Origin: a virus
Length of the DNA: 64,000 nt
Direction: 5' to 3' (one strand)
IMG/VR virus record: IMGVR_UViG_3300006919_000042
Span: 1-64,000 of that record
A program made the translations under genes and the position numbers. The notes beneath the pieces are model-generated. The model did no database searches and had not been told where the DNA came from. It saw nothing but the letters and a program-made list of their open reading frames with translations. Positions within the stretch are counted from its first letter, which is position 1. Each line of letters starts with the position of its first letter. This document shows positions 22,930 through 38,729 of the stretch, piece after piece.

Positions 22930-23218
22930 AGACTTAGCTGTGATGCTATTGTTGGGACCCGAGTTCGATTCTCGGCAGCTCCACCAATTGGGATCCTTGA
23001 AGCTGGATGGTAACGAAAGAGATTAGAGAAAGCCTTGGCAATGTGCCTACGTCTCTTTCCCCTCGCCGTATAACCCTGGGGCTGACTGGTTTTGACTGCA
23101 ATTTGTAAGCAATTAAGAGAAGATAATTAATATAACTCCAAAAGTTATAAACCTTTTTGAGCCTCAGCTTAGAGCTGTGGCATAAGACGTCTGGGACGTA
23201 CGACAACGTCCCTTTTTT
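22930..23218 (+). ncRNA. ssrA: Circularly permuted (two-piece) tmRNA
   Basis: Acceptor piece comes first: GAC, T-arm CCGAG-TTCGATT-CTCGG (22959-22975), CAGCTCC-A-CCA (22976-22986). Then a 91-nt spacer, then GGGGCTG-ACTGGTTTTGAC (23078-23096), giving a 7-bp acceptor stem with G3.U70. Tag ORF ends RAVA* at 23185, followed by a terminator. The 5' end is approximate. Confidence 0.9.
23193..23218 (+). terminator. Intrinsic terminator closing tmRNA
   Basis: GGGACGT-acgaca-ACGTCCC-TTTTTT. Confidence 0.85.
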
Positions 23219-33637: not shown

Positions 33638-35815
33638 ATGAAATTAGTACAAGAATCGTTTAATGACACAGTAATGGGATCTGAAAAAGAGATGAATTTC
33701 TCTATCAGTGACGATAATCCTATCATCTTCGAAATCCTTAGAGATAAGATGTATAGCAATAAGATCGGTAGTATCTGTAGAGAAGTATCTTCAAACTCAC
33801 GTGATGCTAATAGAGAAGCTGGAAATGCTGATCTACCAATTGAGATCACAATTATCAAACCATCAGATAAGATTAATATCAACGCATTAGTTGGTCACTT
33901 GAGTATATCATTCAAGGATTATGGTGTTGGAATTACTCCTGACCGTATGGAAAACGTATTCGTAAAGTATGCTGCGTCAACTAAAAGAGATACAAATTCA
34001 CAAACCGGTGGATTCGGATTAGGTGCAAAGACACCATTCGCATATACTGACACTTTCACAATCGTTACAATTTGTAATTGGGAAGGAAAACTTCAGAAAT
34101 TCACATATACTGCAATGATTGATGCTAGTAGAAAAGGTAAGATGATACTTTTTGAAACTGAGGATGCTCCAGATCAATCTACTGGAACTCAGATAATTAT
34201 ACCAATTAACACTCCAAATGACAGAGCACAATTTGAGAGAGAATGTGTAAACTACACATCATTCTGGGGAGTTGGTCAGGTTAAGTACAATGGATTTGAG
34301 AATGAGCCTAGTGTAAATGCAATCATTCAAGACACAGATCAGTTCACGATATATTATAATGAAGACCTTGACAAAAGGTATAAGTTACTTATTGATGGTG
34401 TGCCTTATCCACTTGACAGAGACTACGTTAAAGTTAGTCGTTTAGGATTAGGTAGTGGATATTGCTTAGCTCTAAAATTTGGAGTTGGTCAACTGAATAT
34501 CAGTGCAAATCGTGAGTCAATCCAATATGATGACGCTACAGTTAAGAAAATCAACAAGTTATATGCTGATATCAAAGCTGATATCCTTAAAATGTTTGTT
34601 GAGAAATTAAGTAGTGCAGACAACTATTTAGAGGCTTGTATCAAACATGCTACAGTTAATGCTAAGTTTCATGATATCAGATACATTGAAGATATTGACA
34701 CTCGATTAATCGCATATGCATTTGCTGATGGTGGATATGGTAGTGAGAGAGGAATTCTTTGGGATTGTAAAAGACAAGTGTTGAAATCAAATGATTATGA
34801 AGGGAAGAAGATAATCACTAGATTTCAATTCAAACACCATAAGGTGATCTTTGTTAAGAATCCAGGCACTTATGATAAAGTGAAGTACGCAGAGACTTCA
34901 TCATTTGGAATTAGCCCACGTAATATCAAGATTGCAAAATACTACGGGGACAAGAAGAGAAACATCAGAAGAAACCGCACTATTTGGGATGAGCAGATTG
35001 CCAATGAAATGGATACATTTATGTTAATCGTTCCAACCGGCGATGATGTTAAAGGTCAGAATAATGAAATGCTTGCATTTCAAGATGTTGGATTTGAATT
35101 CAAGATGTATGGTGATGTGCCAATGAAGAAGGGTGATTCAACTTACAGTAAGTACGTTAAACAACCTAACGTTTGGGTTAAATGTAGAGAATTCAACAGT
35201 AGCATTTATAACGATAATGAGAGCTTTGATTTAGATATAGACAGAGCAACGTTGAAAATTAATCCCACACAAGGAAAAACCAAAGATTTTGTGTACTATA
35301 TGATTGATACATTGAAGGACGCAAATGAGGTTTGTTCGTGGAGAAAACATACTATGTTCAAAGCGCTAACTAAGTTAGGTGGAAAAAGAGTGATATTAGT
35401 CAATGAGAGATCACATAGAAACTATATTTCTAAGATGAAGATGCAAAGTGCAGACGATGCATTTAAGGCTCTTAGAACGAAGCATTTGGCTGCTTGGACG
35501 GTACAGAGAGATTTGAAAGCAATCAAACGATTCTCAAGAGATTGTGGCTTTCCTGAGAAAGGAATTGAGAAGCTCCCTGAGCTGTTTCCAAAAGTATTGG
35601 TTGAAGCACTAACAACTGATACAGATAAACATCACAATTTCAATGAGTTATGTGGAGATAAGATTCCAGCATTAGATATCAATAAGATGAAAGAGGACAT
35701 TAATGCAATGAATAAAAAGTATCCAATGTTGAAGCCATTCATATATAACAGAGGAAGTGGAATCACAGCAGAAGAATTAACTCACGTCAGAAATTACATT
35801 AAGACAGTTGTGTAG
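33638..35815 (+). CDS. rIIA: rIIA-like protein (GHKL ATPase N-terminus)
   Basis: MYSNK..REVSSNSRDA, KDYGVG, STK..TGGFGLGAKTPFAY, SANRESI. Confidence 0.85.
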   Translation: MKLVQESFNDTVMGSEKEMNFSISDDNPIIFEILRDKMYSNKIGSICREVSSNSRDANREAGNADLPIEITIIKPSDKININALVGHLSISFKDYGVGITPDRMENVFVKYAASTKRDTNSQTGGFGLGAKTPFAYTDTFTIVTICNWEGKLQKFTYTAMIDASRKGKMILFETEDAPDQSTGTQIIIPINTPNDRAQFERECVNYTSFWGVGQVKYNGFENEPSVNAIIQDTDQFTIYYNEDLDKRYKLLIDGVPYPLDRDYVKVSRLGLGSGYCLALKFGVGQLNISANRESIQYDDATVKKINKLYADIKADILKMFVEKLSSADNYLEACIKHATVNAKFHDIRYIEDIDTRLIAYAFADGGYGSERGILWDCKRQVLKSNDYEGKKIITRFQFKHHKVIFVKNPGTYDKVKYAETSSFGISPRNIKIAKYYGDKKRNIRRNRTIWDEQIANEMDTFMLIVPTGDDVKGQNNEMLAFQDVGFEFKMYGDVPMKKGDSTYSKYVKQPNVWVKCREFNSSIYNDNESFDLDIDRATLKINPTQGKTKDFVYYMIDTLKDANEVCSWRKHTMFKALTKLGGKRVILVNERSHRNYISKMKMQSADDAFKALRTKHLAAWTVQRDLKAIKRFSRDCGFPEKGIEKLPELFPKVLVEALTTDTDKHHNFNELCGDKIPALDINKMKEDINAMNKKYPMLKPFIYNRGSGITAEELTHVRNYIKTVV

Positions 35816-35866
35816 AACATATATAGTAAGTATCTTTAAACAATAATAATCGTAAAATAATTCACC

Positions 35867-37372
35867 ATGAGTAAAAAAATCAAAGCAATCGTAAGTGAGA
35901 AAACAATCGTTATCCACTACGACGGGAAAAAAGTTAACATCCAAAAACAGACGGATCAAACACTATTCCAAGAAGTATCTCTGTTGATTGACAACAAAGA
36001 TGAAAAGGCATTAATTGCCAAATTCAAATCGATCAAAGAGATCGCAGAAAAATTCTCCAACAAGATGATTGAAGTTGATAATGATGGCAAAGCCACTCTG
36101 AAAGGAAGTGACCGAGTTATTCCACCTGCAGTGATTAAGAAGATGTTAGAGCTTGAAAAAGACCAACAAGACTTCTTACCACTAATCAGATTCTGGAGAA
36201 AACTTCAAAAGAACCCTAGTACTAATTCACGTGAACAACTTTATGGATTCATGCTTGCCAATCATATTCCGATTACAGAGCAAGGTGACATAGTTGTTGA
36301 AAAAGGAGTTAGTCAAAAACGAGGTGGAGTTCCAGGTCATTTAATTGACGGACACTCAGGAACAGTTGATAATAGTGTTGGACAGACTGTAGAAATGCCT
36401 AGAAGTGGTGTCGTTGATGATCCAAAACAAACTTGTAGTCGAGGACTTCATGTTGGAGCACCTGACTTCGTTAGAAATCACTGGAACCAAAAGATCATCA
36501 TTGAATGTGTAGTTAATCCTGAGGACGTAGTATCTGTTCCAGTTGATTATAGGAACACCAAGATGAGAGTTTGTAAGTATAAAGTAATGGGATATAGTTC
36601 TAAGAGTGAGAGAACTAATCAAGTCGTTGCAGTATCCGATTTTGTTACACTACCAAGTGAGGCTGTATTGAAACTTCTTAAAGATGGTGTTGAAGGTGGA
36701 AAAGAGCAGAATGAGCCTAATGAGAAGCAGGCTGTAGTTACTAGCATTAAAGTCAATAAATCAATTACAACTACCAATGAGTATGTTGAAACATTGAGTA
36801 AGATGACTGCAGGTAAAATCATCACACACGTTGAGGAGGTTACAGGAACGAAGATTACCCTTAATCCTAAGAACAAGAAAGCCATCATCAAGAAAGGTGC
36901 TGAGTTACTTGAGATATTCCACACCACTAAACAGATTGCTGCGACGCAAGAAACTCAAGATGAAGTAATTGCTACTGTCAAGAAGCAAGAAACTGGTCCT
37001 TGGAGTGTAAGAATGACAAGTGCTGGTAGCAGTAAACTTGCAGTAGCTAAACTATATGTTGAACAATTCAATTGTGGTTTAAGAGCTGGTAAGCAGATGA
37101 TTGATAAAGCACCATTCGTTATGATATCAGGTGCTAGTAAAAGATTTGCTGAAAGATATGTAAAGCTGTTTACTGAGGTTGGTGCTAAGATGGAGACGTT
37201 CAAACCGAATGTTGATAAGAAAGAGATCGTTCTTTCAAACCACACAATTCCTCAACTAATTGGAATGGTACAAGCTAAATTCAATGAGAGAATTAAGAGT
37301 AGAGCGCCTAGAACAGAGGTTGAATCTATCACAAGAAAGCTGTATGAAAGTGCAGGTTATAAAGTAATCTAA
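35867..37372 (+). CDS. rIIB: rIIB-like protein with a fused ribosomal bL12 CTD-like domain
   Basis: NPS..QLYGF, EMPRSGV, CSRGLHVG, VNPEDVVSVP, KMRVCKY; L12-like segment at about 37001-37204. Confidence 0.85.
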   Translation: MSKKIKAIVSEKTIVIHYDGKKVNIQKQTDQTLFQEVSLLIDNKDEKALIAKFKSIKEIAEKFSNKMIEVDNDGKATLKGSDRVIPPAVIKKMLELEKDQQDFLPLIRFWRKLQKNPSTNSREQLYGFMLANHIPITEQGDIVVEKGVSQKRGGVPGHLIDGHSGTVDNSVGQTVEMPRSGVVDDPKQTCSRGLHVGAPDFVRNHWNQKIIIECVVNPEDVVSVPVDYRNTKMRVCKYKVMGYSSKSERTNQVVAVSDFVTLPSEAVLKLLKDGVEGGKEQNEPNEKQAVVTSIKVNKSITTTNEYVETLSKMTAGKIITHVEEVTGTKITLNPKNKKAIIKKGAELLEIFHTTKQIAATQETQDEVIATVKKQETGPWSVRMTSAGSSKLAVAKLYVEQFNCGLRAGKQMIDKAPFVMISGASKRFAERYVKLFTEVGAKMETFKPNVDKKEIVLSNHTIPQLIGMVQAKFNERIKSRAPRTEVESITRKLYESAGYKVI

Positions 37373-37417: not shown

Positions 37418-37630
37418 ATGATAGTTTATAGAGAAGAGAAAGGTGGACTGATTACATTAGATGTATCAACACTGACGGCTGAGGAACTGACTGAGGAAGT
37501 CTTAGACAGATTCTATGTAATAGTAAGAAAGAAGTGGTGGGAGTCTCATCGTAGATTCTTGAAGAGAATTGCTAAAGTTTATAAGCAAAAGTCAAACACA
37601 ATGGTAACATATAAAGGAAAAGTATTATGA
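37418..37630 (+). CDS. Hypothetical protein
   Basis: 70-aa ORF. Confidence 0.5.
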   Translation: MIVYREEKGGLITLDVSTLTAEELTEEVLDRFYVIVRKKWWESHRRFLKRIAKVYKQKSNTMVTYKGKVL

Positions 37631-38238
37631 TAATAGCAATCTCCGGTAAGGCTGGATCAGGAAAGGATGAAGTAGGTAAGATTATTCAATATCTTACAAG
37701 TCCAAGTGCAATATCAAAAGGAACTTATACACATTGTCAACAGTACGGTCACGTATATGACGTTGACTTTGTAATTCATAAGTTCGCTGCAAAGCTCAAA
37801 TCAAGTATCGAGCATAAGTTTCCAAACGATTTCAATGCATTCTTGTGGGAGACCTCAGGATCTGAATATCGTGATGAAGTAATTAAATGCTTAGGAATGA
37901 CTCGTAGAGAGTTGTTGATTGATGAAGCAATGGCACTCAGAGGGATTAATAAGGATTATTGGGTAGCAGCATTGATGGGAGAATACACTCTAGCAAGAAA
38001 GTGGTTGATAACAGATATGAGATTTCCAAACGAACTTGAAGCTGTTGTTGAGAAACAAGGGTTCTGCTTACGTGTAGAACGTCCAGGAGCAAAGTTAATC
38101 GACTCAATCTCAGAAACTAGCTTAGACCACATCGTAGGTCAAGGAAAAGGCTTAGATGACGTAATCATCAATGATGGAACTATTGAGCAATTAGTTCAGT
38201 GCGTTCGTCATTGGATGATAGAGAGAGAGTTGCTTTGA
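37627..38238 (+). CDS. Deoxynucleoside monophosphate kinase
   Basis: ISGKAGSGKD, FAAKLK, ITDMRFPNE, SETSLD, INDGT. Confidence 0.88.
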   Translation: MIIAISGKAGSGKDEVGKIIQYLTSPSAISKGTYTHCQQYGHVYDVDFVIHKFAAKLKSSIEHKFPNDFNAFLWETSGSEYRDEVIKCLGMTRRELLIDEAMALRGINKDYWVAALMGEYTLARKWLITDMRFPNELEAVVEKQGFCLRVERPGAKLIDSISETSLDHIVGQGKGLDDVIINDGTIEQLVQCVRHWMIERELL

Positions 38239-38729
38239 ATTTAGTGACAATACATACTGACGGAAGCGCAGTCAATAACAAGACTGTACACAACTCAGGC
38301 CATGGAGGGGCTGGTGTGGTATTTCATCATGGTGAAAGAGAAGTGACTCGACATTTTGGGTCATTCAGAAATACCACATCCGCACGCATGGAAATCTTCG
38401 CAATCATTAAAGCACTCGAACTAACACGTCCAGGAGTTTTGATTAAATTATTCACAGATAATCAATACTGTAGTAATACAATAAATCATGATTGGTACAA
38501 TAAATGGATCACTACTCAAGCTGATAAAGCCAATATGGATCTGTGGAGACGATTCAAAAAGATATATCAAACACATACATGCAACGGTAGTAGGATTGAA
38601 GTGACTTGGATAAAAGGTCACGCAAAGGGAAAGTATATTCATAATGAGACAGCAGACCGTTTGGCCACTAAGGGTCGCCTAAAAGTCCGCGAGATTGTTG
38701 ACAACCGAGATGGATTCAAAAATTGTTAA
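38235..38729 (+). CDS. rnhA: Ribonuclease HI
   Basis: HTDGS, RMEIFA, TDNQY, NMDLW, WIKGHA, NETADRLA; probable TTG start. Confidence 0.9.
   Translation: MNLVTIHTDGSAVNNKTVHNSGHGGAGVVFHHGEREVTRHFGSFRNTTSARMEIFAIIKALELTRPGVLIKLFTDNQYCSNTINHDWYNKWITTQADKANMDLWRRFKKIYQTHTCNGSRIEVTWIKGHAKGKYIHNETADRLATKGRLKVREIVDNRDGFKNC

Follow-up and report, generated by a model that had tools for sequence, protein, structure and literature searches.

The rII locus, one of those on which molecular genetics was founded, counters RexAB and triggers the bacterial CARD/gasdermin defence. The biochemical mechanism of the rIIB family is unknown (PMC10312443). In ribosomal protein bL12 (L7/L12), the C-terminal domain (CTD) is the part of the protein that contacts IF2, EF-Tu, EF-G and RF3 (PMC3299993, PMC12548414), and bL12 domains embedded in phage proteins were listed by Mizuno et al. 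2019 (PMC6375957), whose Table 1 includes a protein of 724 amino acids (aa) from Erwinia phage Ea9-2. The same authors reported homologues specifically devoid of the domain, argued that it had been acquired repeatedly, and found that the residues contacting EF-G and EF-Tu are retained in the phage bL12 domains. Here we describe a stretch of 64,000 nucleotides of viral DNA (positions 1 to 64,000 of IMG/VR record IMGVR_UViG_3300006919_000042, referred to below as the window) in which an rIIB gene encodes a copy of the bL12 CTD, and we compare it with the Ea9-2 protein, with T4 rIIB and with bacterial bL12.

A bL12 head domain inside rIIB

The carrier is an open reading frame (ORF) of 501 aa plus stop (35867..37372, + strand) that matches PHROG 609 RIIB (E 1.4e-53), has precomputed matches to PF26926 and PF00542, and lies directly downstream of an rIIA gene. 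The in-frame translation of positions 37001-37204 (+) gives the 68 residues, aa 379-446, that an earlier note, made from the letters of this DNA, had described as an L7/L12 CTD aligning without gaps and fused inside rIIB. Both halves of that description held when profile and structure searches were run. Over the region that the note had marked for a Pfam search (aa ~379-446), PF00542 (Ribosomal_L12) matched aa 380-443 (37004-37195) with 37.0 bits (E 4.4e-9), above the gathering cut-off of 25.9 bits and covering profile positions 2-65 of 67; the identical match is present on the genome record. When all PDB sequences were searched with phmmer, the significant matches were to bL12 chains only, and the top one was 1ctf, the E. 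coli L7/L12 CTD (E 7.6e-5), to which the rIIB domain aligns over 69 residues without a gap.

The fold was assessed with an AlphaFold2 model of aa 300-501 of the window rIIB, for which the input included six orthologues. Residues 379-445 were modelled as strand-helix-helix-strand-helix-strand, which is the bL12 topology, with a predicted local distance difference test score (pLDDT) of 83-90 for the block. In Foldseek, the top ranks for the modelled domain were occupied by bL12 chains only, and 1ctf superposed with a template-modelling (TM) score of 0.93 and a root-mean-square deviation of 0.9 Å over 67 residues at 33% identity. The other known fold of such a shape is that of the N-degron adaptor ClpS. 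ClpS has a related alpha/beta fold, with TM scores of 0.67-0.71 to the window domain, but it ranked below all bL12 chains (E ~0.04, 12-13% identity), and every sequence profile picks bL12 for this domain. These data confirm the segment, taken as aa 378-445 (36998..37201, +), as a genuine copy of the bL12 globular head, well folded in the model and far beyond a chance resemblance.

The copy shares its fold with the bacterial bL12 CTD (PF00542; 1CTF), and in both a flexible tether runs ahead of the domain. It differs in being embedded in a 501-aa phage protein that does not contain the N-terminal dimerisation and uL10-binding domain of bL12: PF16320, which describes that domain, gave no match in the 501-aa rIIB at E <= 1, whereas the true bL12 proteins P0246 and P0242 carry it.

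The carrier itself is an authentic rIIB. Its conserved core (approximately aa 1-260; 35867..36646, +) is PF26926, Phage_T4_rIIB, and is modelled with a pLDDT of 91.7. In BFVD the core matched the predicted structures of rIIB from T4-like and N4-like phages with E values down to 1.7e-22, and the Atlas clusters are 99% PF26926, which the Atlas itself names Phage_T4_rIIB. C190, H195, K232, R234 and C236 are invariant across 79 homologues. A Foldseek search of the PDB with the core model returned nothing at E <= 0.001, and the profile of the 79 homologues found no meaningful match among PDB sequences.

Downstream of the core, a poorly conserved linker leads to a first two-helix module (aa 313-352; 36803..36922, +), seen as helices in the model and kept in relatives whether or not they have the L12 domain. 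A long helix and then a disordered tether follow (aa 353-377; 36923..36997, +), with a mean pairwise identity of only 0.21 among the seven fused proteins and a pLDDT below 50 at aa 364-373; the tether enters the L12 domain. Beyond that domain lies a second two-helix module (aa 452-501; 37220..37369, +), which is also found in relatives that do not have the L12 domain and which repeats the first (hhalign probability 93%, E 3.8e-7). Neither module matched a Pfam family at E <= 1, and their likeness to HeH/SAP domains is one of pattern only. The carrier is thus a true rIIB in which the L12 domain is inserted in a variable C-terminal extension, between two repeated two-helix modules. With T4 it has in common the core domain (PF26926) and the rIIA-rIIB gene pair; it differs from T4-type rIIB, which is ~300 aa long, and from closer short relatives in which the L12 domain is missing.

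Distribution of rIIB-bL12 fusions

The earlier note had also proposed a survey of rIIB domain architectures. The 526 rIIB homologues included seven metagenomic protein clusters of ~500 aa (43-63% identical) that carry both PF26926 and PF00542, and all seven domain copies exceed the Pfam threshold (31-49 bits). The same in-frame fusion is seen on the independent metagenome contigs L004, L005 and L006, and it is therefore not an assembly chimera. In the nearest relatives (P0007 and P0010-13, 426-434 aa) exactly the L12 segment is missing while both two-helix modules are kept, and the order rIIA, rIIB, ~200-aa gene, ~160-aa gene is unchanged with or without the domain (L006, L007). In P0015, P0016, P0019 and P0030, a third two-helix module occupies the slot of the L12 domain (alignment A1, columns 400-500). 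Because this sister group fills the slot with another module, its C-terminal extension can be described as a cassette site of rIIB.

A metagenome scan with alignment A3 yielded 80 rIIB loci. At these loci the L12 domain was found only inside rIIB (L004-L006), and no stand-alone L12-CTD gene was present within ±10 kb. A word-indexed protein search with aa 372-447 gave only the cluster of the query itself, a tblastn search of 50,697 phage records gave only two Staphylococcus records (39% identity, the domain being unannotated there), and none of the 95 candidates from a pattern scan of IMG/VR with alignment A2 was confirmed.

The phylogeny of the N-terminal core unites five of the carriers in a single clade (support 100/98) and places P0009 and P0008 elsewhere, so that three gains or losses of the domain are needed. 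A tree of 280 L12-CTD segments also placed the five rIIB copies together and left P0008 and P0009 unplaced. The seven carriers share a mean pairwise identity of 0.62 in the core, 0.52 in the first two-helix module and 0.38 in the L12 domain, as compared to 0.21-0.24 in the linkers that flank it, and the domain is thus under constraint, although less so than the core. Its G+C content is that of the surrounding rIIB gene.

The protein of phage Ea9-2 listed in 2019 turns out to be an rIIB as well. AHI60108 (724 aa) matches phrog_2886 'RIIB' with an E value of 7e-197, its gene follows rIIA, and RefSeq annotates it as RIIB lysis inhibitor. Like the window protein, it adjoins rIIA and has one embedded PF00542 domain. 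The domain lies at aa 146-210, however, upstream of the core (aa 285-449, which is 34% identical to aa 76-242 of the window rIIB, E 3e-21), whereas that of the window lies downstream of the core, between the two-helix repeats. The best PHROG also differs (phrog_2886 for Ea9-2, phrog_609 for the window), as does the phage, since Ea9-2 belongs to the Schitoviridae while the window comes from an unclassified record of ~88 kb (up to 106 kb for the longest contig of the cluster). Because the domain sits on the opposite side of the core, in another rIIB subfamily and in another type of phage, at least two separate rIIB-bL12 fusions have to be assumed. Related Erwinia phages share the Ea9-2 L12 segment, and related copies occur in Tellus, Frozen, Rexella and Gutmeister. 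Not every N4-like phage has the fusion, as the 683-aa rIIB of IME11 (N4-like, Gamaleyavirus) gave no PF00542 match. For Salmonella phage FSL SP-058, of which a 418-aa bL12-domain protein was listed by Mizuno et al. 2019 (PMC6375957), nothing in the first 50 kb is annotated as rII; from the order of accessions, the gene of the 418-aa protein is expected beyond that part.

Fusions of this kind were therefore already in print in 2019, and the window holds a separately arisen variant in a different rIIB subfamily: it adds a second, separate instance and not a new principle. That the same domain was joined to rIIB on two separate occasions argues for a functional link between the two.

Possible roles of the rIIB-borne head

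The surface by which the bL12 head docks its clients offers one way to judge what the rIIB copy might do. In E. coli numbering, K65, K70, L80 and K84 on helices 4 and 5 are reported to form the factor-binding face, and the fuller list of factor-binding residues is said to comprise K65, V66, I69, K70, R73, L80, K81, E82, A83 and K84. Six positions are invariant in all seven rIIB-borne copies (G62, K65, L80, K84, A103 and G114 in the same numbering). K70 is present in 6/7, a K or R occupies position 81 in 6/7, E82 is present in 5/7, and position 73 is basic in 4/7. The window copy itself keeps K65, K70, G79, L80 and K84, with L in place of V66 and R in place of K81. The other members of the family keep more of the listed residues than it does.

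Our tentative preference is for a tethered mimic of the ribosomal stalk, in which the head on rIIB would bind translational GTPases or another stalk client. In such a scheme, the head would dock a protein that normally binds the bL12 head, the prime candidates being EF-Tu, EF-G, IF2 and RF3. Docking could hold the rIIA/rIIB counter-defence pair beside its client, or titrate that client, early in infection. The modelled architecture echoes that of bL12, in which a flexible hinge likewise leads to a globular head. We infer the retained binding of a stalk client, and whatever would follow from it, from this architecture and from the conserved face. The presence of the same factor-docking domain on rIIB at two positions, in two unrelated phage groups, hints that rIIB may act at or near the translation-factor cycle, and this recurrence points towards a connection of the rII system with translation factors.

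Several observations weigh against this scheme. The window copy has A, V, A and G in place of I69, R73, E82 and A83, and its closest relative, P0003, has likewise lost residues of the binding face, R73 and E82 among them. W379 and an SKRFA motif where helix 6 begins are specific to the five-member clade and absent from bL12; together with the loss of seven acidic residues, they suggest a changed surface. The domain is dispensable in nature, as the nearest relatives do cleanly without it in an unchanged gene order; it was gained or lost three times on the core tree, and its conservation is below that of the core. At the micromolar affinity that is usual for bL12, a single head would compete weakly. 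Finally, ribosomes could not be purified with a tagged phage protein that contains a bL12 domain (Mizuno et al. 2019, PMC6375957).

The same changes at the surface bring in an alternative that we regard as possible, if doubtful, namely that the L12 fold was kept only as a stable scaffold and now has a ligand that has nothing to do with translation, for instance rIIA, a different region of rIIB, the membrane or nucleic acid. The window copy carries a net charge of +6, while that of the E. coli CTD is about -2 (counted on the 1ctf alignment), a difference due mainly to lost acidic residues. The clade-specific W379 and SKRFA and the loss of R73 and E82 would fit such a re-purposing, as would the flanking two-helix modules, which resemble HeH/SAP nucleic-acid binders by pattern. 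The earlier note had remarked on the replacement of acidic by basic residues. The remark is right for the window copy and does not extend to the family, in which net charge runs from 0 (P0005) to +7 across the seven rIIB copies; given that span, the basic shift is lineage-specific, and as a pointer to a switch to nucleic-acid binding it is a weak one. Moreover, the surface residues that stay invariant, K65 and K84, are the canonical factor-binding ones, which speaks against a re-purposing.

Proteins that use the L12 fold outside the ribosome bear on the same question from both sides. In an exhaustive HMMER search with the 82-aa segment, 254 proteins matched at E <= 0.001. The best-ranked of them are non-ribosomal proteins of up to 2154 aa in which HMMER marks 2-8 L12-CTD stretches each, the largest array scored by Pfam having seven copies. 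By Pfam, the domain is fused to TIR (P0129), LRR (P0141), LRV/HEAT (P0133) and zinc ribbons (P0236, P0135). Some of these proteins lie on long, cellular-looking contigs (326 kb for P0124, 177 kb for P0141), and P0251, a small protein consisting of the CTD only, is annotated in an alphaproteobacterial genome. The true bL12 proteins P0246 and P0242 are ~40% identical to the phage domain. The set of non-ribosomal tandem L12-CTD repeats is found among proteins P0122-P0270. In phages, stand-alone L12-CTD genes are known from examples such as Streptomyces phage Riptide (PMC12509530).

Such wide reuse of the fold in bacteria, in arrays and in fusions, shows that it can serve outside the ribosome and is thus compatible with a re-purposed head in rIIB. 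The non-ribosomal copies nevertheless retain the K65/K70/R73/L80/K84 signature, suggesting that the repeat proteins have the same kind of client, and K65, K70 and K84 are kept in the window copy too. In contrast to the window protein, these are arrays in cellular genomes, are joined there to effector or repeat domains, or are encoded by small phage genes of their own, and none of them is fused to rIIB.

Free bL12 heads might, alternatively, sequester a toxin or defence effector of the host that docks on the stalk to reach the ribosome, and thereby spare the translation of phage mRNA, a role that we consider unlikely. Among the sequence and fold matches was 8phj, a solved structure in which Cami1, a CRISPR-associated effector, is in complex with the 70S ribosome and bL12 is present; Cami1 is reportedly captured by the ribosomal stalk. 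rIIA and rIIB are counter-defence genes against RexAB (PMC13716836, PMC10312443), and the inhibition of E. coli ribosomes by a ribosome-inactivating protein from a plant depends on the L12 stalk (PMC12737465). No effector of this type is known for the host of the window phage, however. In addition, one head per rIIB protein would have to compete with four to six per ribosome and with tens of micromolar bL12 in the cell (PMC12548414).

It is more improbable still that the domain is an evolutionary passenger without function, acquired by illegitimate recombination into a tolerant linker. The slot is indeed variable, relatives having either nothing or a third two-helix module there, and both the three losses or gains and the lower conservation relative to the core would be expected of a passenger. 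Yet the domain has stayed in frame and able to fold, and it exceeds the Pfam cut-off, in seven lineages whose identity has fallen to 43-63%; its conservation is above that of the adjacent linkers, and N4-like phages have the same domain joined to rIIB at another site.

Replacement of host bL12 on the stalk can in practice be excluded: although one peptide of a phage bL12-domain protein was detected in ribosome fractions (Mizuno et al. 2019, PMC6375957), the rIIB copy is internal to a 501-aa protein and cannot be a ribosomal subunit because it lacks the N-terminal domain by which the stalk is attached to uL10 and which true bL12 such as P0246 has.

Gene neighbourhood and other elements of the window

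The rIIA homologue directly upstream of rIIB (33638..35815, +) is 725 aa long, matches PHROG 612 RIIA (E 1e-66) and has an N-terminal GHKL ATPase domain (Pfam HATPase_c, aa 42-131). Between positions 35840 and 35869 no Shine-Dalgarno-like purine run precedes the start of rIIB, the upstream sequence reading aaaataattcacc-ATG; this could hint at a host that does not depend on Shine-Dalgarno pairing. Downstream of rIIB (37627-38729) there is an ORF of 203 aa resembling a P-loop kinase, with a GKAGSGKD motif, and an overlapping ORF of 176 aa. In the relatives L006 and L007, rIIB is likewise followed by ORFs of similar length.

The IMG/VR record from which the window is taken is 88 kb long and estimated to be 86% complete. 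Its gene products include a terminase, a DnaB-like helicase, a large DNA polymerase and nucleases of the SbcCD type, and no N4-type markers were seen among the scanned ORFs of the window. ARAGORN reported no tRNA or transfer-messenger RNA (tmRNA) over the window. At 22936-23185 (+), Rfam found a permuted tmRNA (RF04321) over the full length of the model, at 52.4 bits (E 2e-7) and thus above the cut-off of 47. This match is a second translation-related element of the phage, located ~13 kb upstream of the rIIB-bL12 fusion.
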